DNA of 64,000 bases from Oscillospiraceae bacterium. Lineage in GTDB: Bacteria; Bacillota; Clostridia; Oscillospirales; Oscillospiraceae. The position numbers and the translations under genes were made by a program. Each line of letters begins with the position of its first letter. Within the stretch, counting starts at the first letter, position 1. Shown piece by piece: positions 3,736-59,495 of this stretch. The notes beneath the pieces are model-generated. The model was not told the DNA's origin and searched no databases. It saw only the letters and a program-made list of their open reading frames with translations. The DNA lies in the NCBI GenBank assembly GCA_902787755.1, contig CADAHL010000005.1:19524-83523 (forward strand), written 5' to 3'.

Positions 3736-3791
3736 GCGCAAACCCAAACGAGGGTCGTAACATACACGAATATATAAGAGGAGGAAAAAAC

Positions 3792-19450: not shown

Positions 19451-20020
19451 TTATTTAATGACTTCGACCTGATCGAGCTCCATATCCAGAGGAGTCTCGC
19501 GGCCGAACATGGTGATGACGACGCGGACCCGATTGCGCTCGGGCTCCAGCTCGCTCACCACGCCGTTGTGACCGGCAAAGGGGCCTTCCTTGACCCGGAC
19601 CTCGTCGCCCACAGCATAGTTGACCACGATCTTCAGCAGCTGTTCGCTGGGATCGAAGAACTCCGGTTCGTCCTCCGGGGCGACTTCCACGCCCAGATCG
19701 TAGATTTCCTTCTCGGTCAGGGGGATGGCCTTTCCATCGGCCCCGACAAAGCCCGTCGCACCGCGGACATTGTGGATCAGGTGCCAGCTGTCGTCCGTCA
19801 GCGTCATCTTCACCAGCACATAGCCGGGGAAGACCTTGCGCTCCACCGTTTTCTTCTCACCGCTGTCGGTGATCTCGGTCACGGTCTCCAGAGGGATCCT
19901 GGTCTCCAGGATCAGATCCGTCATCCTGCGGTTCTCCGCCGCCTTCATGATCGCGGCGGAAACGGCGTTTTCATATCCGGAGTACGTGTGTACCACGTAC
20001 CATTTCGCTTCTTCAGCCAT
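19451..20020 (-). CDS. nusG: Transcription termination/antitermination factor NusG
   Basis: KWYVVHTYSGYENAV.., and a KOW motif VRVKEGPFAGHNGVV. Confidence 0.97.
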   Translation of the reverse strand: MAEEAKWYVVHTYSGYENAVSAAIMKAAENRRMTDLILETRIPLETVTEITDSGEKKTVERKVFPGYVLVKMTLTDDSWHLIHNVRGATGFVGADGKAIPLTEKEIYDLGVEVAPEDEPEFFDPSEQLLKIVVNYAVGDEVRVKEGPFAGHNGVVSELEPERNRVRVVITMFGRETPLDMELDQVEVIK

Positions 20021-20481: not shown

Positions 20482-20591
20482 GTTAACGGCACCTCCTATG
20501 ATTATTTACCCGCGTGGCGGGCATTGCCTCCCTGTGTGGATCGAGAAAAATGCGCACAAAAAGAAAACCTCTCGTCCGACAGGTAAGGCTA

Positions 20592-20620
20592 ACTATAGCA
20601 CAACCCGAACGAGAGGTCAA
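20592..20620 (-). promoter_or_regulatory. Promoter of rpmG-secE-nusG-rplK-rplA
   Basis: The minus strand reads TTGACC, a 17 nt spacer, then TGCTATAGT (extended -10). Confidence 0.6.
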
Positions 20621-20631
20621 CACTTTTTTGC

Positions 20632-20750
20632 GTGAAAAATGAAGAGTGAAGAGTGAAAAGTTATGGTATCTCGCCCTCGGCGTGGCGGATCTTGATCCGT
20701 CGCGTCAGCGACACCTGAACTCTTCACTCTTCACTTTTCTCTTTTCTCTT
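20632..20750. repeat. Heptad-armed inverted-repeat element, copy A
   Basis: Left arm GTGAAAAATGAAGAGTGAAGAGTGAAAAGTT and right arm GAACTCTTCACTCTTCACTTTTCTCTTTTCTC. The core has three hairpins: CGCC-CTCG-GGCG, CGGAT-CTTG-ATCCG and GTCGC-GTCA-GCGAC. It ends 3 nt from the plsY stop. Confidence 0.8.
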
Positions 20751-20753
20751 GAC

Positions 20754-21401
20754 TTACAGCCGTCCGATCCGCCGAAGCTCCTTTTCCCGGTCCCAGAGAA
20801 AGCTCAGGCGCAGCTCCTCGCCGGTGCGGATCCGGTGGAAGTTCACCAGATGCTTGCAGAAAATGGGAACCGCGGGGATGGCCAGAATGGCGGCGCCCAG
20901 CCAGAAGGCGCTGGACAGACCCACGTAAAGCGGGAAAATAACGGACATGCTCACGGTGGCAATGCAGACGTAATTGGTGACCAGGCCGATGAACAGGGCG
21001 ATGCCCAGCATCAGCAGCAGGACCTTCCAGTCGTAGGCCAGGGCCAGACCGCCCAGACAGGCCAGCCCTCTGCCGCCCCGGAAATGCAGGAACACCGGAA
21101 ACATGTGTCCCAGCAGGGCGGCCACGCCTCCCAGCATCCCGCTGACCTTCAGCAGGGGGAAGAGCCACCGGCACAGCCACCAGGCGCAGGCGGCCTTGAG
21201 AATGTCCGTCAGCGCCACCGCGAATCCCGCCAGCTTGCCGACCAGGATCACGGTGTTGGAGGCTCCGGCATTGCCCGAGCCGTCCCGGCGCACGTCAAAG
21301 CCCTTGATCCTGCCGATGAGATAGGAGGGACTGAAGCAGCCCATCAGGTATCCGATGAGCAGGCAGCACAGTATTTGCACGACAGGGTGATCCATTGGCA
21401 A
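20754..21401 (-). CDS. plsY: Glycerol-3-phosphate acyltransferase PlsY
   Basis: GSGNAGASN motif, HMFPVFLHFRGGRG, and a multi-TM profile. Confidence 0.9.
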   Translation of the reverse strand: MPMDHPVVQILCCLLIGYLMGCFSPSYLIGRIKGFDVRRDGSGNAGASNTVILVGKLAGFAVALTDILKAACAWWLCRWLFPLLKVSGMLGGVAALLGHMFPVFLHFRGGRGLACLGGLALAYDWKVLLLMLGIALFIGLVTNYVCIATVSMSVIFPLYVGLSSAFWLGAAILAIPAVPIFCKHLVNFHRIRTGEELRLSFLWDREKELRRIGRL

Positions 21402-24721: not shown

Positions 24722-24764
24722 AAAAACCCCCTTCATGTCCTGTCAACAGGATATGAAGGGGTTT
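24722..24764 (-). terminator. Rho-independent terminator after the noc-like gene, abutting the ylmC start
   Basis: The minus strand reads CCCCTTCATATCCTG-TTGA-CAGGACATGAAGGGG followed by GTTTTTCC and then the ylmC ATG. Confidence 0.7.
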
Positions 24765-24840
24765 CTGTGTTTATGTGGGTTTTCGCGGCGCTTTTTCTCC
24801 CGCCTTTCACTGCCCCTCTTCCGCGGACCGCCGCACAGCC

Positions 24841-24915
24841 GACGGATCACCATTCACGCCGCGAAGCGGCATACCATAACTCTTCCCTTTTCATTCTTCG
24901 CTCTTCGCTTTTCCT
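24841..24915. repeat. Heptad-armed element, right-half copy D
   Basis: GACGGATCACCATTCACGCCGCGAAGCGGCATACCATAACTCTTCCCTTTTCATTCTTCGCTCTTCGCTTTTCC aligns with the right half of copy B. It overlaps the last codons and the stop of the noc-like gene. Confidence 0.7.
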
Positions 24916-25724
24916 TTGGGAATGGAGATGGTCAGGATCAGAGAGTCCTCGGTCTCCTCCTTTGTAAAGCCCGCGTCGATGCCGCCCTGCTTCATCAGAT
25001 CGATGTTCCGGGTCAGGCTGTTGAGAAAGATGCGCACGTCCTTCAGGACCAGGCTGCGCCGGGGCTCCCGCTTCTCCTCCGGGGCCTCCCCGGGCGGGCT
25101 GAGAAGGGTATCCACGTAGCTCTCCGTGGCCGCGACCGTCAGATCGTTTTCCAGCACGTACGCCAGGGCCAGCTTCTGGGCGGCCGCATCCGGCAGCCGC
25201 AGCAGGGCCCGGCCGTGGCGCTCGCTGAGACCGTGCTCCCGCAGGGATTCCAGCACCTCCCGGGGCAGCTTCAGCAGCCGCAGCTTGTTGGCCACGGCGG
25301 ACTGGGACTTGCCGATCCGCCGGGCCGCCTCCTCCTGGCTCATGCCGAACATGCGGATGAGCCGCTGCAGACCCTCCGCCTCCTCCAGAAAATCCAGATC
25401 CTTCCGCTGGAGATTTTCGATCAGGGCCAGGAGACTGGCGTCCTCCATGTTCACGTCCACCAGGATGCAGGGCACCTCCCGCAGCCCGGCCATCCTGGCG
25501 GCCCGAAGACGCCGTTCTCCGGCTACCAGCTCGTATTTGCCGCAGCGCAGCCGGACGGTCAGCGGGTTCAGGATCCCGTAGCTCTGGATGCTCTCGCTCA
25601 GCTCCCGCAGGGCCTGCTCGTCAAAATGTTTTCGCGGCTGGACCGGATTGGGAGACAGATCCTCCACCCGCAGCGAGACGATCCCGCCCCGCCGGATGCC
25701 GGGGCGCGTGCGATAAGTCTGCAT
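24891..25724 (-). CDS. ParB/Noc-like CTP-binding DNA-binding protein (orphan, no parA neighbour)
   Basis: The N-terminal domain has the AGERRLRAA arginine patch. The HTH is SQEEAARRIGKSQSAVANKLRLL. A Noc-like C-terminus is present (VLKDVRIFLNSL..LILTISIPK). Confidence 0.85.
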   Translation of the reverse strand: MQTYRTRPGIRRGGIVSLRVEDLSPNPVQPRKHFDEQALRELSESIQSYGILNPLTVRLRCGKYELVAGERRLRAARMAGLREVPCILVDVNMEDASLLALIENLQRKDLDFLEEAEGLQRLIRMFGMSQEEAARRIGKSQSAVANKLRLLKLPREVLESLREHGLSERHGRALLRLPDAAAQKLALAYVLENDLTVAATESYVDTLLSPPGEAPEEKREPRRSLVLKDVRIFLNSLTRNIDLMKQGGIDAGFTKEETEDSLILTISIPKGKAKSEE

Positions 25725-27108: not shown

Positions 27109-28956
27109 ATGGGCGCGAAACGTGTCATTACGATCATCTTGGGGCTGGTGTATACGGTTGCCCTGTTCCTGTTCGGCTTTTCGCCGCTGAGCGCGGGACG
27201 CGGAGGGGACGCCGGGACCAACGCCGGGACGGAGCGCCGTCCGGCGCTCGCTCTGGTTACGCCTACGCCCGAGCCGGAGATCCCGGACGTGAACTTTGCC
27301 GCCGGAGCGGTGCCCGCGGATACCGAAGAGCTGACCCTGGTTCTGGAGCAGGGGGAGACCCGGCTGCTGAACCGGCTGAAGGAGCTCAAGAGCGCGGATC
27401 TGAGCGGCAGCACCTGCTATGAGGAGATCGTGAGCTGGGCCCAGGCGCACCCGGAGGTGGCGGTACGCTACACGGTGCAGCTGCCCAACGGCGCTACCCT
27501 TCCCAACGACGCCCAGGAGGCGGATCTGACCGGGCTGGCGGCCGAGGACGGAGAGAAGGCGGCGGAGCTGCTGGCCTTCCTGCCCGGACTGAAGAAGGTG
27601 GAGCTGGGCGATCCCGCCATCAGCGCGGCCCAGATCCTGGCCCTGCGGGAGAGCTACCCCGAGGTGGAGTTCCACTATGACGTGATGCTTCTGGGCCAGA
27701 AGCTGGATCCCCAGGTGGAGGAGCTGGACCTGACGGAGCTGAGCCCGGAGGAGGCCGACAAGGCGGTGCTGGCCCTGGCGGGGCTGGAAAATCTGCAGAC
27801 CATCTATCTGTCTCCCGATTCCGGACTGAGCTGGGATCAGATCACCGCCATCGGTGACGCCTGCCCCGACACGGTGCTGAATATGCCGGTGACCATGTTC
27901 GGCAAGAGCTTCAACCTGGCCGATCCCTGGCTGGACTTCAACCACATTTACATGGACGACAACGGCGAGGCCATCCGGGGCCTGATGCCCTATATGCGCA
28001 ACTGCACGGTCCTGGATATGGACTCCTGCGGTGTCAGCAATGAGGCCATGGCCCAGATCCGGGATGAAAATCCGGGGATGGACGTGGTCTGGCGCGTGAA
28101 CTTCGGCGACAACTACTCCGTGCGCACCAATGTGACCAAGATCCTGGCCTCCAAGCCCTCCAAGGGCGGCGCCCTGTATGACAGCGCGGCCGAACAGCTC
28201 AAGTACTGCACCAACGTGCGCTATCTGGACGTGGGCCACAACGGCAACCTCTCCGACTTCAGCTTCGTCAGCTATATGCCCAACCTGGAGATCGCTGTGG
28301 TCTCCATGACCGGCATCTACGATCTGTCTCCCTTTGCCAACTGCCCGAACCTGCTGTACCTGGAGGCGGGCAACACGCCCATCTACGATCTGAGCCCTCT
28401 GGCCAACTGCACGAAGCTGGCCCACCTGAACGTTGGCACCTGCGTGGGCGTCAGCGACATCAGCCCCCTGTACGAGCTGGATATGAAGCGGCTCTGGCTG
28501 GGCGTGGTGGACCCGGTGCCTCAGGACCAGATCGACTATATGCGCGAGCTTCATCCCAGCTGTGAGGTCAACACCACCGTGCCCTCCGGTCTGGAGCGCA
28601 ACGCCGACGGCGGCGCCGCCAACGAGGGCTACGTCATGGGCGACTGGAAGAGCTACCAGAACTACCTGACCGCCGACTGGGAGTCCTACGCCCGGACCGG
28701 TTCCTTCCCGGCCCAGCGTCCCATCGGCTACTTCAAGGTGATCTACAAGTGCTTTGACTACAACCTGGCCGACGGCGCCTACGCCTTCTCCTGGAACGAT
28801 CCCAAGTACAGCGCCCACAGCCCGGACGTGTTCCCGGTGAACACCGCCATCCACAATACCGAGCTTCTGAGTCAGGACTGGGTCAACCCCGAGTCCGTGA
28901 TCCCCGAGCTGCTCTCCGATCCCCCCGGAGAGGTGCTGTGGACCATCGAATACTGA
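27109..28956 (+). CDS. Membrane-anchored leucine-rich-repeat (LRR) surface protein
   Basis: 615 aa with an N-terminal TM segment. LRR-like units recur (LxxLxLxxN.I.DLSPL), e.g. CPNLLYLEAGNTPIYDLSPLANCTKLAHLNVG. It is a paralog of the next gene. Confidence 0.8.
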   Translation: MGAKRVITIILGLVYTVALFLFGFSPLSAGRGGDAGTNAGTERRPALALVTPTPEPEIPDVNFAAGAVPADTEELTLVLEQGETRLLNRLKELKSADLSGSTCYEEIVSWAQAHPEVAVRYTVQLPNGATLPNDAQEADLTGLAAEDGEKAAELLAFLPGLKKVELGDPAISAAQILALRESYPEVEFHYDVMLLGQKLDPQVEELDLTELSPEEADKAVLALAGLENLQTIYLSPDSGLSWDQITAIGDACPDTVLNMPVTMFGKSFNLADPWLDFNHIYMDDNGEAIRGLMPYMRNCTVLDMDSCGVSNEAMAQIRDENPGMDVVWRVNFGDNYSVRTNVTKILASKPSKGGALYDSAAEQLKYCTNVRYLDVGHNGNLSDFSFVSYMPNLEIAVVSMTGIYDLSPFANCPNLLYLEAGNTPIYDLSPLANCTKLAHLNVGTCVGVSDISPLYELDMKRLWLGVVDPVPQDQIDYMRELHPSCEVNTTVPSGLERNADGGAANEGYVMGDWKSYQNYLTADWESYARTGSFPAQRPIGYFKVIYKCFDYNLADGAYAFSWNDPKYSAHSPDVFPVNTAIHNTELLSQDWVNPESVIPELLSDPPGEVLWTIEY

Positions 28957-28981
28957 TTTGCGACGTTACGACAACCATCAG

Positions 28982-29018
28982 CCCTCGTCCCGCCCAACGG
29001 CCGGGGCGAGGGACTTTT
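28982..29018 (+). terminator. Terminator-like hairpin between the two LRR paralogs
   Basis: CCCTCGTCCCG ... CGGGGCGAGGG pairs at 10 of 11 positions and is followed by ACTTTTAT. Confidence 0.55.
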
Positions 29019-29037
29019 ATCCCGGGAGGGAGTTTTT

Positions 29038-30795
29038 ATGCGCATGAAGATCCTGAAACTGCTGCCGACTCTGCTGCTGGCTCTGCTGCTGGCCGGCTGC
29101 GGCATGAGCGGCCTGGAGGGCGAAGCGGCGCCGGAGCCTACCCCGGAGCCCAAGGAGTTCAGCGGTGTGATCACCGCTCAGGGCCTGAAGAAGCTGGAGG
29201 AGATGCCGGGCCTGCGCACGGCGGATCTGAGCGGCAGCACCTGTTATGCCGAGATGATGGCCTGGGCCGCGGAGCATCCGGAGGTCAAGGTCATCTATAC
29301 CGTTCCCCTGCCCGACGGGACCGCGGTGCCCAACGATACCGAGGGCCTGGATCTGAGCGGCTACAGCGCCGCTCAGATGAAGGATACCTGGCAGCTGCTG
29401 GGCTATCTGCCCCGGCTGCGGCTGCTGCGCCTGGGGGAGGAACCCCTGGAGCCCGAGACCCTGGCCCTGCTGCGCGAAAGCCTGCCGGAGGCGGAACTTC
29501 AGGGCAGCGTCCGCTTTGCCGATCAGAAGCTCACCCTGGGGCGGTCGGGCCTGAGCCTGCCCAATCTGGACGGGGAGCAGCTGCGGGAACTGACAGAGCT
29601 TCTGCCGCTGATGGACGGCCTGGAGGAAGTGAACCTGGGCCGGGAGGCGGCGGAGGGCGATACGGACTGGGAGGCCATGGGGGAGCTTTGCTCCGCGCTG
29701 CCGGACCTGAAGATCCATTATGTCTTCAGCGTGTACGGCAAGGAGTGCAGCCTGGAGGACACGGATCTGGACCTGAGCTTTATCCGGATCTATGACGAGG
29801 GCCAGGCCCTGCGGCCGATCCTGCCCTGCATGAGAGACTTGAAGACCCTGGATATGGAGCACTGCGAGGTCAGCGACGACGCTATGGGCGCTCTGCGGGA
29901 GGACTTCCCGGAGATCCAGATCGACTGGCGCATCTATTTCGGCACCTGCTACTCGGTGCGAACCGACGCCATCAAGATCCTGGCCTCCAAGCCCACCGTG
30001 GGCGGGGACCTGATGCGGGAGGATCTGGAGGTACTCAAGTACTGCACCAAGCTCAAATACCTGGATCTGGGCCACAATGAGATGCTGACGGACATCTCCT
30101 TCATCTCCTATATGCCCGAGCTGGAGGTGGCCATTCTGGCTATGGACAAGTGGACCGACGGCTCCCCGCTGGCCGACTGCCCCAATCTGGAGTTTCTGGA
30201 GGTCCAGACCACCAATCTGAAGGATCTGACGCCTCTGTCCGGCCTGACCAAGCTCCGGCACCTGAATATCTGCCGGCTGGAGGAGCTGACGGATCTGAGC
30301 CCCATCTACGATCTGGATCTGGAGCGGCTGTGGATCGGCTGCGTCACGCCCATCCCGCCGGAGCAGGTGGAGCACTATCAGCGCTTGCACCCCAACTGCA
30401 AGATCAATACCGAGGCCTTCGACCCCCACGACGGCTGGCGCTGGCTGGGCTATGACGACGATCTCAACCCCATCCGGGATCCCCGCTACGATCTGCTGGT
30501 GCAGCAGTTCGGCTACGACAAGGGCGACTATTCCTTTGTCTGGTTTACCGATCCCAGCTACGTCTCCGACGTGCTGTGGGAGTACGGCGGCGATTTTGAG
30601 TCCACCACGGACGACGACGGCGGCAGCTCCGGCGGCGGAGGCTACATAGACTACGGCGGCTCCGGCAGCAGCGAGGGCGGCTCCGGCGGCGGTGAAACCG
30701 GCGGAGGCGGCGGCTCGGGTGACAGCGGCGGGGGAGACTCCGGCGGCGGAGCTCCGGACCCCGGAGACGGCGGCGTGGTCGTCATCGAACCCTGA
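29038..30795 (+). CDS. LRR lipoprotein paralog with a Gly/Ser-rich C-terminal tail
   Basis: The lipobox is LLLAGC. It shares the segment ADLSGSTCY.E...WA..HPEV.V.YTV.LP.G with the previous gene. LRR units such as CPNLEFLEVQTTNLKDLTPLSGLTKLRHLNI are present. The tail reads GGSSGGGGYIDYGGSGSSEGGSGGGETGGGGGSGDSGGG. Confidence 0.8.
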   Translation: MRMKILKLLPTLLLALLLAGCGMSGLEGEAAPEPTPEPKEFSGVITAQGLKKLEEMPGLRTADLSGSTCYAEMMAWAAEHPEVKVIYTVPLPDGTAVPNDTEGLDLSGYSAAQMKDTWQLLGYLPRLRLLRLGEEPLEPETLALLRESLPEAELQGSVRFADQKLTLGRSGLSLPNLDGEQLRELTELLPLMDGLEEVNLGREAAEGDTDWEAMGELCSALPDLKIHYVFSVYGKECSLEDTDLDLSFIRIYDEGQALRPILPCMRDLKTLDMEHCEVSDDAMGALREDFPEIQIDWRIYFGTCYSVRTDAIKILASKPTVGGDLMREDLEVLKYCTKLKYLDLGHNEMLTDISFISYMPELEVAILAMDKWTDGSPLADCPNLEFLEVQTTNLKDLTPLSGLTKLRHLNICRLEELTDLSPIYDLDLERLWIGCVTPIPPEQVEHYQRLHPNCKINTEAFDPHDGWRWLGYDDDLNPIRDPRYDLLVQQFGYDKGDYSFVWFTDPSYVSDVLWEYGGDFESTTDDDGGSSGGGGYIDYGGSGSSEGGSGGGETGGGGGSGDSGGGDSGGGAPDPGDGGVVVIEP

Positions 30796-43350: not shown

Positions 43351-44544
43351 ATGAAAAAGATTCTTGCGCTTGTTCTGGCTCTGTGCATGGTCTTTGCTCT
43401 GGCCGCCTGCGGTCAGCAGGCCGCTCCTGCTGAGGCTCCCGCTGAGCAGCCCGCCGAGGCTCCTGCCGAGCAGCCCGCCGAGGCTCCTGCCGAGGCTCCC
43501 GCTGAGGCCCCTGCCGAGGCCGCTGGTGAGTACAAGGTCGCCATGATCACCGACTACGGCGATATCACCGACCAGTCCTTCAACCAGACCACCTACGAAG
43601 CCTGCAAGGCCTTCTGCGAAGCCAACGCTGTGGACTTCACCTACTTCAAGCCCGGTTCTGACTCCGATGAGGATCGTATCTCCATGATCGAGGCCGCCAT
43701 CGACCAGGGCTACAACGTCATCGTGATGCCCGGCTACGCCTTCGGCGCCGCCATCGCTGCCACCGCTCCCGAGTACCCCGACGTGACCTTCATCGCTCTG
43801 GACGTGTCCGAGTTCGACATTGGCCTGGACGAGATCCCCGCCAACCTGTTCTCCGCTGTTTACCAGGAAGAGCTCTGCGGCTTCATGGCCGGCTACGCCG
43901 CCGTTAAGCTGGGCTACACCAAGCTGGGCTTCCTGGGCGGCATGGCTGTTCCCGCTGTTGTCCGCTACGGCTACGGCTTCGTGCAGGGTGCTGACAAGGC
44001 TGCCGCTGAGATCGGCGCCGACGTCACCCTGAACTACGTGTACGGCAACCAGTTCTACGGCGACGCGGACATCACCGCCGCTATGGACACCTGGTACGGC
44101 GCCGGCACTGAGATCGTCTTCGCCTGCGGCGGCGGCATCTTCACCTCCGCTGCTGAGGCTGCTGCCAAGGTCGGCGGCAAGGTCATCGGCGTGGACGTCG
44201 ATCAGGCTGCCACCATCGACGCCGGCTACGGCGAGGGCATGACTGTTACCTCCGCTATGAAGGGCCTGGCTGCCACCGTCAACACCGAGCTGGCTGCCGT
44301 TCTGGCCGGTCAGTTCCAGGGCGGTCAGATCGCCAACCTGGGCCTGGTCTCCGAGGTCCCCGAAGAGAACTACGTCCAGCTGGCCGGCTCCACCCAGTTC
44401 GGTGAGGGCTTCACCGTTGAGGACTACAACGCTCTGGTCGCCGCCATGTTCAAGGGTGAGATCACCGTGAACAACGACATCTCCATCAGCGCTGCCGACA
44501 ACGCCACCACCATCACTGTTGTGGATCAGGGCACTGTCAAGTAA
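43351..44544 (+). CDS. BMP-family (PnrA/Med-like) ABC transporter substrate-binding lipoprotein, probably for nucleosides
   Basis: The lipobox is LAAC. An AEAP/AEQP repeat linker follows. Then KVAMITDYGDITDQSFNQ. Confidence 0.93.
   Translation: MKKILALVLALCMVFALAACGQQAAPAEAPAEQPAEAPAEQPAEAPAEAPAEAPAEAAGEYKVAMITDYGDITDQSFNQTTYEACKAFCEANAVDFTYFKPGSDSDEDRISMIEAAIDQGYNVIVMPGYAFGAAIAATAPEYPDVTFIALDVSEFDIGLDEIPANLFSAVYQEELCGFMAGYAAVKLGYTKLGFLGGMAVPAVVRYGYGFVQGADKAAAEIGADVTLNYVYGNQFYGDADITAAMDTWYGAGTEIVFACGGGIFTSAAEAAAKVGGKVIGVDVDQAATIDAGYGEGMTVTSAMKGLAATVNTELAAVLAGQFQGGQIANLGLVSEVPEENYVQLAGSTQFGEGFTVEDYNALVAAMFKGEITVNNDISISAADNATTITVVDQGTVK
43429..43524 (+). repeat. In-frame 12/24-nt tandem repeat encoding the (AEAP/AEQP)n linker of the BMP lipoprotein
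   Basis: The units gctgaggctccc and gctgagcagccc/gccgaggctcct are iterated. They translate to AEAPAEQPAEAPAEQPAEAPAEAPAEAPAEAA. Confidence 0.85.
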
Positions 44545-55176: not shown

Positions 55177-55453
55177 AATCCCGGATCAGGGCCAGCTTCT
55201 CCTGTCGGGACAGGCGCTTGAGGTGCCATTCCCGGCTCATGGCGGCCTGCCGGGACCCGCAGTCCTCCCAATAGACCAGCTCCACCGGACGGCGGCTGCG
55301 GGTGTACTTTCCGCCCAGACCCGCGTTGTGGGTCCGGAGCCGATGGACCAGATCGTTGGTCCAGCCGGTGTACAGGGTCCCGTCGGCGCAGCGGAGCATG
55401 TAGCAGTAGTTGCCGCTCTCCGGCTGCCCGGGGGCCGGAAGCTCAGTTCCCAT
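55127..55453 (-). CDS. GIY-YIG nuclease-domain protein (UPF0213/YhbQ-like)
   Basis: ORF trimmed to ATG 55453. Sequence: [28 protein letters not shown]...[14 protein letters not shown]. Confidence 0.8.
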
Positions 55454-55646
55454 GGGCCTGGACCTGGCCGTCTCGCAGGATCTGGCGGACATTTTTCTCG
55501 AACTTGGACCGGGCGCCCATGACCTCATGGCCACAGCCCCGGCAGCGGAGCTTGAAGTCCGCCCCGACGCGCAGCACTTCCCAGTCCCGGCTGCCGCAGG
55601 GGTGGGCTTTTTTCATGGTGAGAACATCACCGATCTGGATATCCAT
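55443..55646 (-). CDS. DUF951 family protein
   Basis: ORF trimmed to ATG 55646 (GGAGGAAAC upstream). Sequence: [43 protein letters not shown]. Confidence 0.8.
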
Positions 55647-55661
55647 AGATGTTTCCTCCGG

Positions 55662-55780
55662 AAAAAGTGAAGAGTGAAGAGTGAATAGTTGCGGTGTCGC
55701 CTTCGGCGACGGATTATAATTGATGCCGCAAAGCGGCATACCATAACTTTTCACTTTTCACTCTTATCTCTTCACTTTTT
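55662..55780. repeat. Heptad-armed inverted-repeat element, copy B
   Basis: AAAAAGTGAAGAGTGAAGAGTGAATAGTT ... GTCGCC-TTCG-GGCGAC ... ATGCCGC-AAA-GCGGCAT ... AACTTTTCACTTTTCACTCTTATCTCTTCACTTTTT. It overlaps the rarA stop codon. Confidence 0.8.
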
Positions 55781-57022
55781 GATCTCATCCCAGTAGCGTT
55801 TGGCGGCCTGCTCGGTCTTGTTGTCGCCGTACTCGTAGTAATGGGCGCCCTTCAGCTCGTCGGGCAGATACTGCTGCCTCACCCAGCGGTGGGGGAAGTC
55901 GTGAGGATAGAGATAGCCCTGCTCCCGTTCGAAGCCGGTTCCGTCAGCGTGGACGTTCTGCAGCTCTCTCGGCACGCTGCCGGTGCGCCCGGCGCGTACG
56001 TCCGCCAGGGCCGCGTCGATGGCCATGCAGGCGGTGTTGGACTTGGGGGCGGTGGCCAGAACAAGGCAGGCCTCCGCCAGAGGCAGCCGGGCCTCCGGCA
56101 GACCCAGCTGCAGGGCCGAGTCCACGCAAGCCTTCACGATGGGCACCGCCTGGGGCCAGGCCAGGCCGATATCCTCGCTGGCCGAGCAGAGGATCCGGCG
56201 ACAGGCGCCGATCAGGTCTCCCACCTCCAGCAGCCGGGCCAGATAGTGCATGGCCGCGTCCGGGTCCGAGCCCCGAAGGGACTTCATCAGGGCCGAGAGA
56301 ATGTCAAAGTGGTCGTCTCCATCCCGATCGTAGCGCATGGCGCTGCGCTGGGAGATGGCGATGGCATCCTCCAGGCGGATGAGGCCGTCCTCCATGGCGG
56401 CGGAAAAGAGAAGCTCCACAGAGTTGACGGCCTTGCGCACATCGCCTCCGCAGGCCGCGGCGATCCGGGCCGCCACACCCTCCTCCAGACGCAGGGGGGT
56501 GGCGCGGCGCTCGTTCTCAATGCGAACCGCCCGCTCCACCGCCTTCTCCACGTCTCGGGCAGCCACGGGCTTGAACTCAAAGACCGTAGAGCGGCTGAGA
56601 ATGGCGTTGAAGACGCAGAAGTAGGGATTCTCGGTGGTGGAGGCGATCAGAGTGATGCGCCCGTCCTCGATGAACTCCAGCAGGGACTGCTGCTGTTTTT
56701 TGTTGAAATACTGGATCTCGTCCAGATACAGCAGAACGCCTCCCGGGGTGAGGAAGGTATCCAGCTCGTCGATGATGCGCTTGATGTCCGCGATGCCGGC
56801 GGTGGTGGCGTTGAGCTTGCGCAGGCTGCGGTTGGTGCGCTGGGCGATGATCCGGGCCACGGTGGTCTTCCCGGTGCCGGAGGGGCCGTAGAAGATCATA
56901 TTGGGGATCTGTCCGCTCTCCACGATGCGTCGGAGCATGCCGCCCTTTCCCAGAATGTGCTGCTGTCCCACCACATCGTCCAGGGAATCCGGGCGGATCT
57001 GGTCGGCAAGGGGCTGATACAT
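55772..57022 (-). CDS. rarA: Replication-associated recombination protein A (AAA+ ATPase RarA/MgsA)
   Basis: LDDVVGQQHILG, Walker A GPSGTGKTT, LYLDEIQYFNK, and the MgsA C-terminal domain. Confidence 0.95.
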   Translation of the reverse strand: MYQPLADQIRPDSLDDVVGQQHILGKGGMLRRIVESGQIPNMIFYGPSGTGKTTVARIIAQRTNRSLRKLNATTAGIADIKRIIDELDTFLTPGGVLLYLDEIQYFNKKQQQSLLEFIEDGRITLIASTTENPYFCVFNAILSRSTVFEFKPVAARDVEKAVERAVRIENERRATPLRLEEGVAARIAAACGGDVRKAVNSVELLFSAAMEDGLIRLEDAIAISQRSAMRYDRDGDDHFDILSALMKSLRGSDPDAAMHYLARLLEVGDLIGACRRILCSASEDIGLAWPQAVPIVKACVDSALQLGLPEARLPLAEACLVLATAPKSNTACMAIDAALADVRAGRTGSVPRELQNVHADGTGFEREQGYLYPHDFPHRWVRQQYLPDELKGAHYYEYGDNKTEQAAKRYWDEIKK

Positions 57023-57229: not shown

Positions 57230-57949
57230 ATGGACGGGCTGAGCGGAACACACACATCTCCCGCCGACAGACGGCGACCCGGACCGATCGTAAAAGCGGC
57301 GGTTCTGGTTTTGGCGCTGGCGCTGTTGGTGTTTGTCGGGATCCGGCTCTACGCCTGGTCCGAGCAGGCCCGGGAGGCCCGGGTAGTGGTGCTGGTCAAC
57401 TCCTGGAACGACGTGGATCATTCCGGTTTTACCCCCAAGCTCCGGGAACTCGGGGACGGCTTCCGGGTGGACGCCGCCTGCCGAAAGCCGCTGAACGAGC
57501 TGCTGGAGGCCTGCCGGGAGGCGGGCTTCGATCCGGTGCTCACGGCGGCCTATCGCAGCCGGGAGGAGCAGCAGGCGCTGTTTGAACAGACCGTGGAGGG
57601 CCTGCTCGGGCAGTACGGCGGGGACCGTCAGGCCGCTGAGGAGGCGGCGGAGAGGGCGGTGGCCCGACCCGGGGCCAGCGAGCATGAGCTGGGTCTGGCC
57701 GTGGATCTGGAGAGCCGGGACGGCCGCAGCGAGCCGATGTACCAGTGGCTCCAGGAAAACGCCTGGCGCTACGGCTTCATCCTTCGTTACCCCCGGGGCG
57801 GGGAGGAGATCACCGGTGAGGACTACACCCCCGGCCACTTCCGATACGTGGGGATGTCCGCCGCCGGTCAGATCTACGCCCTGCAGATCACCCTGGAGGA
57901 ATATATGGGCATGTTCTTCTCCGAGAGCGCCCAGATCATCTTTGAATAA
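57230..57949 (+). CDS. VanY/M15B-family D-alanyl-D-alanine carboxypeptidase, membrane-anchored
   Basis: C-terminal part of ORF 55841..57949. ATG 57230 has GAAAGGAGG upstream. A TM segment is followed by SAYRSREEQ-like AAYRSREEQQALF, SEHELGLAVDL and PGHFRYVG. Confidence 0.88.
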   Translation: MDGLSGTHTSPADRRRPGPIVKAAVLVLALALLVFVGIRLYAWSEQAREARVVVLVNSWNDVDHSGFTPKLRELGDGFRVDAACRKPLNELLEACREAGFDPVLTAAYRSREEQQALFEQTVEGLLGQYGGDRQAAEEAAERAVARPGASEHELGLAVDLESRDGRSEPMYQWLQENAWRYGFILRYPRGGEEITGEDYTPGHFRYVGMSAAGQIYALQITLEEYMGMFFSESAQIIFE

Positions 57950-58057
57950 AAAAGTAAAGAGTGAAGAGTTGTGGTATCGCCTTCGGCGATGGATGGTAAT
58001 CCGTCCCGCTTTGTGGGACACCAGATCTCTTCACTCTTCACTTTTCTTTTTTCACTT
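57949..58057. repeat. Heptad-armed inverted-repeat element, copy C
   Basis: AAAAAAGTAAAGAGTGAAGAGTT ... ATCGCC-TTCG-GGCGAT, GGAT-GGTA-ATCC, GTCCC-GCTTTGT-GGGAC ... TCTCTTCACTCTTCACTTTTCTTTTTTCAC. It fills the gap between the convergent vanY-like and trkH genes. Confidence 0.8.
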
Positions 58058-59495
58058 ATTTCTTCCAGGTCCTGGGGCTCAGGAGCACCAGAATGGGATA
58101 GATCTCCAGACGGCCCAGAAGCATGGCCAGGGTCATCCAGAGCTTGCTGTGCCAGGAGAAGAAGGCGAAGCCTCCCGCCGGGCCGATGGCCTGGGTCATG
58201 CCCGGGCCGATGTTGGACAGACAGCTGAGCGCGGCGGTGAAGCTGGTGGCGATATCCACCCCGTCCAGGGAGATGAGCAGGGAGAAGAACAGGAGCAGGC
58301 CCATGTAGATGGTGAAGAACACCCGGGCCGCCTGCACGGTGCCGGCTTCCACCCGCTTGCCGTCCAGCTCCACCCGGGTCACGCTCCGGGGCCGGATCAT
58401 CTTTTTCAGCTCCGACACCGAGCTCTTGCCCAGGATCATCAGGCGGGAGAGCTTGATGCCGCCGCCGGTGCTGCCCGCGCAGCCGCCGCAGAACATCAGC
58501 AGGATCAGGATCCACTTGCAGTACTCCGGCCAGACGGTGAAGTCCACGGTGCCGTAGCCGGTGGTGCTCAGCAGCGCGCCCACGTTGAAGAAGGCCTGGT
58601 GGACGCCCTGCCAGAAGCCGCCGTACAGATTCCGGATCCCCAGGCTCAGCAGCAACACCGCCGAGAAGATGATACCCAGATACCAATGCAGCTCCTCGCT
58701 TTTCAGCGCCTCTTTCCAGCGCCCGATCAGGATCAGGAAGTAAAGGTTGAAGTTCACGCCGAACAGGAACATGAACACACAGATTACCGTCTCGATGTAC
58801 CGGCTGCCAAAGCCGCCGATGCTGGCGGGATTGGTGGAGAAGCCGCCGGTGCCGGCGGTGGAGAAGGCGTGGAGCAGCGCTTCATAGAAGCTCATGCCCC
58901 CGAAGAGCAGCAGCACCGTCTCCAGCAGGGTCAGACCGATATAGATGAGATACAGGATCATGGCGGTGCGCCTGACCCGGGGGACCAGCTTGCCCACGGT
59001 GGGGCCCGGCACCTCCGCCCGCATGATGTGCATGGAGTGCTCGCCGCTCATGGGCATCACCGCCATCAGAAACACCAGCACGCCCATGCCGCCGATCCAG
59101 TGGGTGAACATGCGCCAGAACATGTCGCCCCGGGGCATGGCCTCGATATCCGTCAGGATGGTGGCGCCGGTGGTGGACAGGCCCGAGGCGGTCTCGAACA
59201 GGGCGTCGATGTAGCTGGGGATGCTGCCGCTGAACCAGAAGGGCAGGGCGCCCAGCAGGGAAATGGAGATCCAGCCCAGACCCACGATCACAAAGCCGTC
59301 CCTGGCCACCAGGGAGCCGGTGCGGGGCTTGGGGATCAGCAGCAGCAGACCCAGGGCGGCGGAGATGCCGATGGTGGCCAGGAAATTCAGAACCGACTCG
59401 CCGTAGACCAGCCCCGCGATCATGGGCAGGAGCAGCAGTCCCGCATAGATCAGCAGAATCAGTCCCAGCACCCGGCAGATCATTCGGTAATTCAT
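58056..59495 (-). CDS. trkH: TrkH/KtrB-family potassium uptake membrane protein
   Basis: 479 aa, multi-TM, with repeated selectivity-filter-like TTGATI, SGLSTTG and STAGTGG segments. Confidence 0.93.
   Translation of the reverse strand: MNYRMICRVLGLILLIYAGLLLLPMIAGLVYGESVLNFLATIGISAALGLLLLIPKPRTGSLVARDGFVIVGLGWISISLLGALPFWFSGSIPSYIDALFETASGLSTTGATILTDIEAMPRGDMFWRMFTHWIGGMGVLVFLMAVMPMSGEHSMHIMRAEVPGPTVGKLVPRVRRTAMILYLIYIGLTLLETVLLLFGGMSFYEALLHAFSTAGTGGFSTNPASIGGFGSRYIETVICVFMFLFGVNFNLYFLILIGRWKEALKSEELHWYLGIIFSAVLLLSLGIRNLYGGFWQGVHQAFFNVGALLSTTGYGTVDFTVWPEYCKWILILLMFCGGCAGSTGGGIKLSRLMILGKSSVSELKKMIRPRSVTRVELDGKRVEAGTVQAARVFFTIYMGLLLFFSLLISLDGVDIATSFTAALSCLSNIGPGMTQAIGPAGGFAFFSWHSKLWMTLAMLLGRLEIYPILVLLSPRTWKK

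Follow-up and report, generated by a model that had tools for sequence, protein, structure and literature searches.

A heptad-armed palindromic DNA repeat at gene 3' ends in an Oscillospiraceae genome, probably of the REP/MITE kind

The window, by which we mean the whole 64-kb stretch of DNA analyzed here, carries a short repeat at four places, which we call copies A to D. A first-pass annotation, made by reading the letters alone, had described three full copies and one right half with inverted-repeat arms built from heptads, each touching the stop codon of a minus-strand gene. The sequence, an nhmmer profile search, and an excess of arm-derived 17-mers bear out this description, and Pfam searches confirmed the flanking genes as plsY, a ParB/Noc-like gene, rarA/mgsA, and trkH, with the addition of a convergent VanY-domain gene. 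In the window, the arms begin 0 to 3 nt from a stop codon or include it. The elements measure 110 to 122 bp, within the size range of MITEs (<300 bp), contain no ORF, and amount to 3.5 copies in 64 kb.

Copy A (positions 20632-20753, no strand assigned) consists of a left arm (20632-20662) reading GTGAAAA ATGAAGA GTGAAGA GTGAAAA GTT, a core of GC hairpins (20663-20717), and a right arm (20718-20753) that is directly adjoined by the TAA (20754-20756) of plsY (20754-21401, minus strand; PF02660, 3e-37). A sigma-70-like promoter of the rpmG-secE-nusG-rplK-rplA cluster (20592-20620, minus strand; TTGACC-17-TATAGT) lies 12 nt beyond the left arm, so that copy A separates plsY from this promoter; the gene at 19451-20020 is the canonical nusG of that cluster and not a LoaP-like paralogue. 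Copy D (24839-24915) is truncated to its second hairpin and right arm, and the last codons (..KAKSEE*) and TGA (24891-24893) of the ParB/Noc-like gene (24891-25724, minus strand) are heptad-derived sequence of this arm. Copy B (55662-55780, no strand assigned) has a left arm of A5 plus heptads (55662-55690), a core (55691-55744), and a right arm ending in T5 (55745-55780). The TGA (55772-55774) of rarA (55772-57022, minus strand) is the first TGA of the copy B arm, within heptad-derived sequence, and the last two rarA codons (AAAAAG) form the outermost stem pairs. Downstream of copy B is a DUF951 gene (55443-55646, minus strand), whose GGAGG ribosome-binding site and ATG follow the element by 4 and 16 nt. 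Copy C (57947-58058, no strand assigned; left arm 57947-57970, core 57971-58023, right arm 58024-58058) is the entire gap between the stop codons of two convergent genes, a VanY-domain carboxypeptidase gene (57230-57949, plus strand; stop 57947-57949) and trkH (58056-59495, minus strand; stop 58056-58058), with the arm directly after the trkH TAA.

The nhmmer profile, built from the three full copies, matched just these four places in 64 kb, with E-values of 3e-42 (copy B), 1.4e-40 (copy C), 6e-39 (copy A), and 1.3e-12 (half copy D). The 17-mer AGTGAAGAGTGAAGAGT, allowing up to 3 mismatches, matched 15 times compared with 0.09 expected from shuffles; all 15 matches fell inside the four elements, on the plus strand in left arms and on the minus strand in right arms. 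The cores at these unlinked loci are homologous as well: TCGCCTTCGGCGA is common to copies B and C, GCCGC.AAGCGGCATACCATAAC to copies B and D, and ATCCGTC occurs once in each of the four copies.

Whichever strand is read, the arms are tandem heptads, with (GTGAAGA)n 5' of the core and (TCTTCAC)n 3' of it, and they pair over a median of 23 bp (range, 13 to 50 bp; 105 elements). A short closing helix, TGGT/ACCA, connects them to a core of two GC-rich hairpin units of about 20 nt, framed GGTnTC..GAnGGAT and ATCCnTC..GAnACC and inverted around an AT-rich or palindromic linker; there are two or three GC hairpins per core, and they resemble a REP doublet. In copy B, hairpin 1 (55696-55710) is GTCGCC-TTC-GGCGAC, and hairpin 2 (55724-55738) is TGCCGC-AAA-GCGGCA, which is also the hairpin of half copy D. 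Whichever strand is folded, full copies have predicted energies between -53 and -62 kcal/mol (z = -7 to -10; per strand, -62.1 and -55.4 kcal/mol for copy A and -57.4 and -53.8 kcal/mol for copy B), and half copy D does not fold (z about +0.5). Covariation supports the structure: across genomes, 89.5% of alignment cells pair, compared with 73% after shuffling and 41 to 52% when partners are slid, and compensatory changes were seen in 38 of 40 pairs. The core helices are 94 to 97% paired using four pair types (hairpin 1, 96 to 97%; hairpin 2, 94%).

The covariance model scored copies A, B, and C at 103, 132.6, and 115.5 bits, and it matched both strands with similar scores. On both strands, T5 to T6 follows the outer stem in copies A, B, and C, as the first-pass annotation had noted. 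Its claim that all copies share one core orientation proved weak; the core is a pseudo-palindrome, and same-orientation alignment was better for A-C, B-C, and B-D, whereas flipped alignment was better for A-B, A-D, and C-D. Two candidate features were rejected. A TATAAT motif in the core of copy B lacks usable -35 spacing and is not in copies A and C, and the promoter scan was negative; the resemblance of GTGAAA/TTTCAC to parS half-site arrays is no more than that, with the halves in the wrong order and 60 nt apart.

Further copies were found in relatives and in many other genomes. The arm design is present at at least 119 loci in at least 13 phyla or major lineages, and each lineage has its own unrelated core. 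Carriers belong to abundant gut, rumen, and soil lineages and include Oscillospiraceae, Prevotella, Endomicrobia, Acidobacteriota, and Planctomycetota; several genomes have 3 to 5 separate loci each among the matches listed. The sharing of a heptad between phyla is left unexplained by a REP- or MITE-type interpretation. Distribution is patchy, with one element in 536 kb of unselected related Oscillospiraceae DNA compared with three in the 64-kb window.

Presence also varies between species at a single site. The rarA-DUF951 junction, which spans about 125 nt in the window, is without an element in most relatives (rarA 71 to 89% identical), where the rarA stop mostly abuts or overlaps the DUF951 start, for example AAGTAATGG, or is otherwise followed by a short element-free spacer. 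The exact insertion junction is blurred because the nearest empty relative is 89% identical, and one relative (L127; rarA 84% identical) has an element with a different heptad at this same junction, so ancient presence followed by repeated loss is possible. The comparison of empty and filled sites comes from this one junction; synteny of trkH and the VanY-domain gene is not conserved outside the species. No consistent target-site duplication was found in 105 elements (2-nt matches, 18 compared with 6.6 expected; 3-nt matches, 4 compared with 1.6 expected); since the arrays are unequal, the outer boundary is fuzzy, and this could explain the excess of 2-nt matches.

There was no transposase between paired copies, where the genes are housekeeping (OmpA, aconitase, FabH, PknB, and GH95). 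A tblastn search with Escherichia coli RayT over 1.6 Mb, a weak test, gave chance matches only, the best (E = 0.12) being antisense to a ferredoxin-like (RnfB-like) gene, and copy B had no blastn match among 72,556 plasmids and 50,697 phages. The first-pass annotation had not recognized the element as a named family, and Rfam 15 at the gathering threshold likewise returned nothing for the window, and nothing for 18 loci from other phyla; permissive searching gave sub-threshold eukaryotic miRNA-precursor models only (e.g., mir-577, 53 bits compared with the 100 needed). Literature searches by sequence, using exact heptad dimers and all heptad rotations, retrieved unrelated primers and oligonucleotides only, and we found no paper describing an inverted-heptad element.

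Taken together, the window copies are probably palindromic DNA repeats of REP/REPIN/MITE type, non-coding and non-autonomous, in agreement with the dispersed inverted-repeat element first proposed. Such a repeat would have slippage-prone heptad arms and be tolerated at gene ends, where individual copies may be recruited as terminators or RNase III sites. It would presumably spread as DNA through an enzyme that recognizes folded or cruciform DNA, with replication slippage resizing the arms and keeping them alike, and insertions would be expected to survive only in the narrow spaces where genes end. In such spaces, ribosomes arriving from either side would meet TGA in all three frames, supplied by the purine-rich heptads, and the upstream stop and downstream start could stay adjacent because the long stem would fold the insert away. 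Once transcribed, the hairpin (-53 to -62 kcal/mol) and its A/T runs might terminate transcription weakly in both directions at copies A and C; alternatively, it might protect 3' ends or serve as an RNase III site, as in the Correia/NEMIS elements of Neisseria.

More tentatively, the window may hold one lineage of an undescribed, pan-bacterial group of palindromic mobile repeats defined by inverted (R)TGAA(R)A-type heptad arrays. Arms maintained by slippage would then clamp interchangeable, lineage-specific hairpin cores, and the arms themselves would be the functional module, either as the recognition site of a widespread mobilizing or binding factor or as a "bumper" that ends translation in all frames from both directions and folds the insert out. 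Bumpers of this type would let elements colonize overlapping stop/start junctions within operons.

The position of the elements relative to genes fits insertions tolerated at gene ends. Of about 109 inward-facing long ORFs, about 80 stop within 20 nt of an arm or inside it, and for 36 of these the end coincides with an arm TGA or lies next to one (offset +1, +8, or +15 in 33, and +9 in 3); many elements leave just 0 to 25 nt to both neighboring genes. The statement that copies always follow minus-strand genes holds in the window but not elsewhere, as both strands are used in other genomes and the neighboring genes can be tandem or convergent. It is possible, though on balance unlikely, that the element is instead a host-selected, portable, bidirectional intrinsic terminator or insulator, in which the long stem and U-run halt polymerase both ways and selection keeps the element at gene ends. 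The T-runs of copies A, B, and C on both strands would suit this function, as would the position of copy A between plsY and the rpmG-secE-nusG operon promoter, that of copy C as the sole sequence between two convergent genes, and the rarity of divergent, promoter-side contexts (9 of 93). Copy B, however, sits within a gene pair, rarA-DUF951, that overlaps or abuts in most relatives, and the promoter scan called none after it. At an Endomicrobia locus (L067), four gaps within 3.7 kb contain elements, and three of these gaps were shown to separate same-strand genes. Only 63 of 210 tails (30%) are T rich (at least 5 T in 8 nt), and among the 56 elements with one inward-facing gene, such a tail is on the sense side in 12 and on the antisense side in 20. 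The portable terminator suggested by the first-pass annotation is thus not upheld as a general function, given the site of copy B, the L067 locus, and the lack of a sense-side T-tail excess; local use at copies A and C is plausible, since nothing else occupies those gaps. A consensus terminator scan missed the elements because the stem by the U-run is a heptad duplex of 50% GC and the loop is far too long.

We also compared the heptads themselves. Arrays contain 2 to 12 units, and in variant heptads, six of the seven positions are 80 to 91% conserved. A stop codon is retained in 120 of 161 variant heptads, where 107 would be expected, and conservation is no higher at the TGA positions than at the rest; selection for stop codons is therefore only weakly visible. 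The order of the arms, 5' purine to 3' pyrimidine, was never reversed (103 loci to 0; 3 viral contigs to 0), although the loci had been selected by that same order and independent counts come only from the viral contigs and a few extra copies. This constancy, together with the conserved unit positions and the recurrence of one heptad in at least 13 phyla or major lineages with unrelated cores, could be expected if the arrays were binding sites, one unit per subunit, for a conserved DNA- or RNA-binding factor, making the element a regulatory landing pad of the sort proposed for TAACTGA heptamer repeats (PMC4679880). We consider this improbable, as the number of units varies from strain to strain and can differ between the arms of a single element, the arms would normally be base-paired, and no candidate protein was found; moreover, a related element in L127 keeps the core with AATGAAT as its heptad, and others use AATGATT, GAAGTAT, or AATGTTG.

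Variation in unit number was followed within the species, in strains with rarA 97 to 100% identical: one arm of copy C is longer by 14 nt (two heptads), one arm of copy B is longer by one heptad, and the other arm is shorter by 7 nt in L205. Such whole-heptad differences are in keeping with simple-sequence repeats grown in place by polymerase slippage around older terminator hairpins, with no mobility at all. According to Mrazek 2007, as cited in PMC4679880, tandem repeats of heptanucleotides outnumber other long simple repeats in bacteria and are attributed to slippage; in addition, rarA itself supplies the outermost stem pairs of copy B with its last codons, and other heptad arrays follow rarA in two relatives (L126 and L152). 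Growth in place is nevertheless improbable, because the cores are homologous at unlinked loci, most relatives have no hairpin of any kind at the rarA-DUF951 junction, and at every locus the two arms have one heptad in common, in inverted order. A strand-specific structured RNA, either a cis-regulatory 3' untranslated region element or a small RNA gene, could account for the strong folds and covarying helices but is very improbable: the near-symmetry of strand scores, folding energies, and T-runs argues against it, stability is unrelated to the sense strand (24 compared with 32 of the 56 elements with one inward-facing gene, p = 0.2), the promoter scan found no promoter inside the element, Rfam gave nothing beyond the sub-threshold miRNA hairpin models, and presence varies between species.

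Small palindromic repeats (REP, REPIN, Correia, and BOX) shape mRNA stability, termination, and genome plasticity, and detailed study of them has been confined to a few Proteobacteria and pathogens. The element described here is a variant carried by abundant gut, rumen, and soil lineages, and its arms form a heptad microsatellite that is hypervariable. Should a common factor or mechanism underlie the shared heptad, this would indicate a new and very broad route for the spread of non-coding DNA between phyla. On a practical level, the elements can confuse gene callers, because the stops and C-terminal tails of real genes (rarA and parB) are element-derived; whole-heptad strain differences could serve as strain markers, and the elements are compact natural cassettes combining stops in all frames with a hairpin.

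Among known systems, bidirectional intrinsic terminators resemble copies A, B, and C in their location, at gene ends or in convergent gaps, and in a stem with an A-run on one side and a T-run on the other whichever strand is read. Unlike such terminators, the element has a 25- to 35-bp stem of heptad duplex, 50% GC, that encloses a 55-nt core with several hairpins, most family members are without T-runs, and copies occur within operon-like gene strings. Integron attC sites have outer core sites ordered RYYYAAC ... GTTRRRY. In our element this order is inverted on both strands, ..GAAGAGTT ... AACTCTTC.., and attC identity was rejected on that basis; no integrase lies near the window copies.

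Tandem heptamer repeats also have precedents, among them the cyanobacterial STRR heptamers. TAACTGA heptamer direct repeats have been described in Beggiatoaceae, Cyanobacteria, and Bacteroidetes (MacGregor 2015, PMC4679880), and the two systems have in common intergenic tandem heptamers with variable copy number and slippage behavior, whose patchy presence across phyla suggests horizontal spread with no visible vehicle. In both, arrays cannot reach far into genes, since the unit contains stop codons. TAACTGA arrays, however, are direct, unstructured, and mostly located just upstream of start codons, whereas here an inverted pair of arrays, with a different heptad sequence, clamps a hairpin core at gene 3' ends.

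Neisseria Correia/NEMIS elements and pneumococcal RUP and BOX elements are likewise non-coding, about 100 to 150 bp long, bounded by terminal inverted repeats, and present in many copies in intergenic regions near genes. Intergenic MITEs with stops in all frames are known, and RNase III cleaves NEMIS hairpins (Delihas 2008, PMC2229807); our element shares with bacterial MITEs the stops in all frames, the empty and filled sites between relatives, and co-transcribed hairpins, which are RNase III substrates in Neisseria. It differs from them in that no TA or other target-site duplication was seen and no insertion sequence with matching ends is known, in having tandem heptads rather than unique 20- to 30-bp sequences as terminal repeats, and in an arm motif that spans many phyla, known bacterial MITE families being genus-level.

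For the comparison with REP, REPIN, and BIME sequences, we drew on Di Nocera et al. 2013 (PMC3733652) and Bertels and Rainey 2011 (PMC3116915). REPs are palindromic units of 20 to 40 bp, often arranged as inverted dimers able to adopt a larger fold (PMC3733652). As in REP dimers, the core consists of two GC-rich palindromic units of about 20 nt, inverted across a short spacer, and the partner units have different stems, as in REP heterodimers. One unit per window copy is preceded by CGTC (ATCCGTC), and units end in ACC(A), a possible counterpart of the unpaired terminal CGTC (or TGTC/CCTC) tag and CCA tail of CGTC REPs; hairpin 1 of copy B, read on the minus strand as ATCCGTCGCC..GGCGACACC, is a REP-like unit with a CGTC head and ACC tail, and in an 18-sequence alignment counted by eye, YGTC precedes hairpin 2 in 11 of 18 sequences and an ACC tail is found in 11 of 18. 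Several details depart from the published CGTC REPs, which lack a dedicated transposase and have not been reported from Firmicutes (PMC3733652). The CGTC tags here face the linker ("TT"), with GTC predicted to pair with GAC, whereas in published dimers the tag is unpaired and mostly lies outside ("HH"); our stems measure 5 to 8 bp with loops of 3 to 4 nt, compared with 8 to 9 bp and 4 to 5 nt; and published stems start A-T, T-A, where we found an AT start only in ATTCGCC (L053 and L068) and ATCGCC (copy C). REP dimers embedded in longer palindromes occur in Anabaena variabilis and Halothiobacillus neapolitanus, and REPs are located downstream of ORFs (Di Nocera et al. 2013, PMC3733652). The element described here shares this placement, between same-direction or convergent genes; unlike in REPs, the palindrome flanking its core is built of tandem heptads and is variable between strains.

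Searched with a profile of the three full copies, the 64-kb window gave exactly four hits: copies A (20632-20753), B (55662-55780), and C (57947-58058), with E values within 3e-42 to 6e-39, and the half copy D (24839-24915; E = 1.3e-12). Rereading the sequence confirmed these three full copies and one half copy as the first-pass annotation had described them. With up to three mismatches allowed, the arm 17-mer AGTGAAGAGTGAAGAGT had 15 matches in the window, against 0.09 expected from shuffles; all 15 lie inside the four elements, the plus-strand matches all on the left arm and the minus-strand matches all on the right arm. Each full copy consists of two arms of tandem heptads, a short closing helix, and a core of roughly 55 nt. 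Whichever strand is read, the 5' arm is (GTGAAGA)n, with GTGAAAA, ATGAAGA, and GTGAATA as variant units, and the 3' arm is (TCTTCAC)n; in copies A to C an A-run and a T-run extend the arms. On both strands, the full copies have folding energies between -53 and -62 kcal/mol (z from -7 to -10); computation gave no stable fold for the half copy D. The core carries two GC hairpins, to which copies A and C add a small linker hairpin (GGAT..ATCC), and forms a pseudo-palindrome (GGTnTC-hairpin-GAnGGAT, linker, ATCCnTC-hairpin-GAnACC) whose hairpins lie in one frame on opposite strands. Because of this pseudo-palindromy, pairwise comparison of the four window cores returned a mixture of "same" and "flipped" orientations, and the earlier statement that all copies share one core orientation is unreliable.

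Neighboring genes were assigned from Pfam and from gene calls on identical metagenome contigs. Copy A lies between plsY and the rpmG-secE-nusG-rplK-rplA cluster, copy D between a ParB-like gene and a PRC-barrel gene, copy B between rarA and the DUF951 and GIY-YIG genes, and copy C between the convergent trkH and VanY genes. The arms reach stop codons at all window copies: an arm directly follows the plsY TAA and the trkH TAA, the VanY TAA belongs to a degenerate heptad, rarA ends at the arm's first TGA (the last two rarA codons forming the outermost stem pairs of copy B), and the last six or so codons of parB plus its TGA are derived from heptads in copy D. Just past copy A, a strong, sigma-70-like promoter (TTGACC-17-TATAGT; 20556-20620, minus strand) heads the rpmG cluster; its -10 box lies in the loop of the hairpin CCTCTCGT..ACGAGAGG, which is followed by a T-run, and a leader or attenuator may therefore precede rpmG. 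Beside the truncated end of copy D, a terminator-like 15-bp GC-rich hairpin followed by TTTCTGTGTT (24728-24761, plus strand) overlaps the region where the minus-strand PRC-barrel gene starts. Elsewhere in the window, 43411-43530 holds at least seven tandem 12-nt units (GCTCCTGCCGAG and similar) that apparently encode an Ala/Pro/Glu-rich repeat, and 27394-30131 holds two adjacent paralogous genes with 72-73% identical stretches and internal 66-nt repeats, called as proteins of 585 and 615 aa with faint LRR_4 hits on the identical contig L210.

Copies B and C were present at the same sites in contigs of the same species from other samples (rarA 97-100% identical), with differences of whole heptads: copy C has two extra heptads (+14 nt) in one arm, and copy B has one extra heptad in one arm, with the other arm 7 nt shorter in one contig (L205). 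The arms thus behave as a heptad microsatellite. The rarA-DUF951 junction, where the gap in the window is about 125 nt, is without the element in most of 80 metagenome rarA relatives (71-88% identical) and likewise in the nearest other species (89%). At these element-free junctions, the stop of rarA and the start of DUF951 overlap or adjoin each other (e.g., AAGTAATGG) or have a short unrelated spacer between them; a minority of the rarA relatives have different, unrelated sequence downstream of rarA. One relative, L127 (rarA 84%), has an element at this junction, with the two-hairpin core and ATTATAAT linker found in the window and arms of AATGAAT instead. When 536 kb of these unselected relatives was searched generically for inverted arrays of period 7, this element alone was found, compared with three in the window, and the family is therefore patchy and expanded in particular genomes. 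In two related species, another heptad array that contains a stop codon and has no inverted partner directly follows the rarA stop: (TAGGTTT)4 in L126 (about 5243-5275) and (TAGTCTA)2 in L152 (about 1675-1705).

The expectation of further copies in relatives and other genomes was borne out. A scan of one genome per species across phyla, requiring a 55- to 85-nt spacer flanked on both sides by two arm heptads, yielded at least 119 loci, whereas a calculated 0.1 or so would be expected in random sequence. Among the 119 matches listed, 59 were in Bacteroidota (mostly Prevotella and rumen Bacteroidales, also Haliscomenobacter, Fibrella, and Cytophagales), 29 in Clostridia, 10 in Acidobacteriota, 4 in Gemmatimonadota, 3 in Endomicrobia, 2 each in Verrucomicrobiota, Planctomycetota, and Latescibacterota, and 1 each in Chloroflexota, Cyanobacteria, Burkholderiaceae, Deltaproteobacteria, and Campylobacterales, with no group assigned to the remaining 3. 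Mis-binning does not account for this breadth, since several of the hits come from isolates or from contigs of 0.3-1.3 Mb. Three contigs of the IMG/VR viral collection (L202, L203, and L204) also contain the element.

Among the loci compared, the arms are common across lineages and the cores are not: the two-hairpin core is seen in Clostridia and Endomicrobia loci, AATTTGCTGCCGC...GCGGCAGCAAATT in Prevotella, and single GC-rich hairpins in the soil phyla, and some Gemmataceae copies are nearly arms alone. On one Gemmataceae contig of 1.03 Mb (L114), near-pure arm hairpins of 7+11 and 12+5 heptads (4711-4847 and 6981-7111) enclose an 11- to 12-nt spacer without a core. The scanned loci also contain elements that follow this design with AATGATT, GAAGTAT, AATGTTG, or AGTGACG as the heptad; GTGAAGA is therefore not the sole unit but the commonest one in a scan that selected for it. 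The order 5'-GTGAAGA...TCTTCAC-3' was seen 103 times versus 0 reversed, the single apparent exception (L106) being an orphan arm beside a full copy; since these loci were selected for arm order, independent support comes from extra copies and the viral-contig scans (3 versus 0 reversed) alone, and the independent evidence that the purine arm is always 5' is thin.

Gene contexts of the scanned elements, taken from a crude ORF caller, were tandem in 57 cases, convergent in 27, and divergent in 9, and many elements leave only 0-25 nt of the gap free on each side. Of some 109 credible ORFs facing inward, 36 stop at an arm TGA or next to one (offset +1, +8, or +15 in 33 and +9 in 3), and another 44 end 20 nt or less upstream of the arm. 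As the 7-nt unit contains TGA, three units suffice to put stops in all frames from both sides, as is known of TAACTGA repeats (PMC4679880) and, among intergenic MITEs, of the 155-bp Correia element and RUP (PMC2229807). Variant heptads keep a stop in 120 of 161 cases, versus 107 expected, and the TGA positions are conserved no better than positions 1, 5, and 7, position 6 (G/A) alone being loose; selection for the arm stop codons is weakly indicated. In a Prevotella MAG (L005), an element (258-367) lies immediately upstream of a cobalamin riboswitch (374-569; 75.7 bits), a 5' leader context and not a gene 3' end. An Endomicrobia MAG (L117) has an element at 283-414, a 6S RNA gene (427-586; 49.4 bits, above the Rfam threshold) starting 13 nt after it, and a second element with AATGATT-type arms at 903-1019.

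Of the first-pass proposal of a bidirectional terminator, partial or local activity is plausible: T5-T6 runs occur on both strands of copies A to C, copy A sits between plsY and a strong promoter, and copy C is the sole sequence between two convergent genes. As a general purpose, however, termination fits poorly. Copy B lies within a gene pair that overlaps or abuts in most relatives, no promoter was detected in or after it, and a consensus terminator scan did not call the elements. On an Endomicrobia contig (L067), elements at 1073-1198, 2385-2511, 3790-3945, and 4637-4760 occupy four gaps within 3.7 kb, three of them shown to be between same-strand genes; a Fic-domain protein is encoded between the third and fourth. 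Family-wide, T-rich tails are a minority. They also showed no sense bias in 56 elements flanked by a long inward-facing ORF on a single side, where they follow the 3' arm on the sense side in 12 and on the antisense side in 20.

A covariance model made from seven close copies recovered elements in Clostridia, Endomicrobia, and others, with both strands scoring similarly. In the model alignment, 89.5% of cells pair (versus 73% shuffled and 41-52% with partners slid), both sides change at 38 of 40 pairs, and pairing in the two core hairpins reaches 94-97% and uses all four Watson-Crick pair types; these numbers lean toward structure because the alignment was fitted to the model and includes both strands. 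An independent MAFFT/RNAalifold run found compensatory pairs in hairpin 2. In the same 56 elements, the more stable strand was sense in 24 and antisense in 32 (P = 0.2). Without a sense-strand preference and with similar strand scores, what is conserved is a two-strand-symmetric fold, as expected of palindromic DNA that forms a cruciform or a single-strand hairpin, or of a two-sided function. An RNA acting from one strand would not be expected to fold symmetrically on both.

The reading with the best support is a palindromic DNA repeat of REP/REPIN/MITE-like kind, with heptad microsatellites as its terminal inverted repeats. The MITE/REP-like classification suggested at first pass stands on homologous dispersed copies, an empty site in related species, and the inverted-repeat fold, alongside whole-heptad strain differences, covarying hairpins, two-strand symmetry, and a tight gene-end fit. 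Such an element may have spread as DNA through a hairpin-recognizing enzyme and would survive only where its insertion is harmless; stops in all frames, and a stem holding the upstream stop beside the downstream ribosome-binding site, would render it so. The transcribed hairpin may secondarily serve as a weak two-way terminator, a 3' end protector, or an RNase III site.

In Rfam 15, no family matched at threshold for the window or 18 loci from other phyla, in line with the first-pass annotation, which recognized no named family; permissive searches gave generic long-hairpin resemblance to eukaryotic miRNA precursor models and nothing else, and the heptad dimer had no match in the literature searched by sequence. 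The nearest described counterparts are REP dimers, MITEs, and heptamer or long simple-sequence repeats. REPs, with units of 20-40 bp, often form inverted pairs, lie downstream of ORFs, and are in some cases embedded in longer palindromes; one superfamily has a CGTC/TGTC tag and a CCA tail (PMC3733652). Each window core likewise contains one ATCCGTC, along with ACC(A) tails, but the tag is inward-facing and predicted to be paired, stems and loops fall short of the published lengths, and no Firmicutes appear among the reported hosts (PMC3733652); we therefore do not file them as CGTC-REP members. RNA hairpins of Correia/NEMIS-type MITEs are cleaved by RNase III (PMC2229807). The elements resemble Correia/NEMIS and RUP in size, inverted ends, all-frame stops, and gene-proximal position and differ in that no target duplication was seen and no parent insertion sequence was found (ORFs between paired copies; RAYT search). 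Cyanobacterial STRR heptamer direct repeats and long simple-sequence repeats resemble them in unit length, slippage, stop content, and cross-phylum distribution. TAACTGA heptamers share the first three of these features and a puzzling cross-phylum distribution (PMC4679880). What distinguishes the elements from all three kinds of repeat is the arrangement of their heptads as an inverted clamp around a core.
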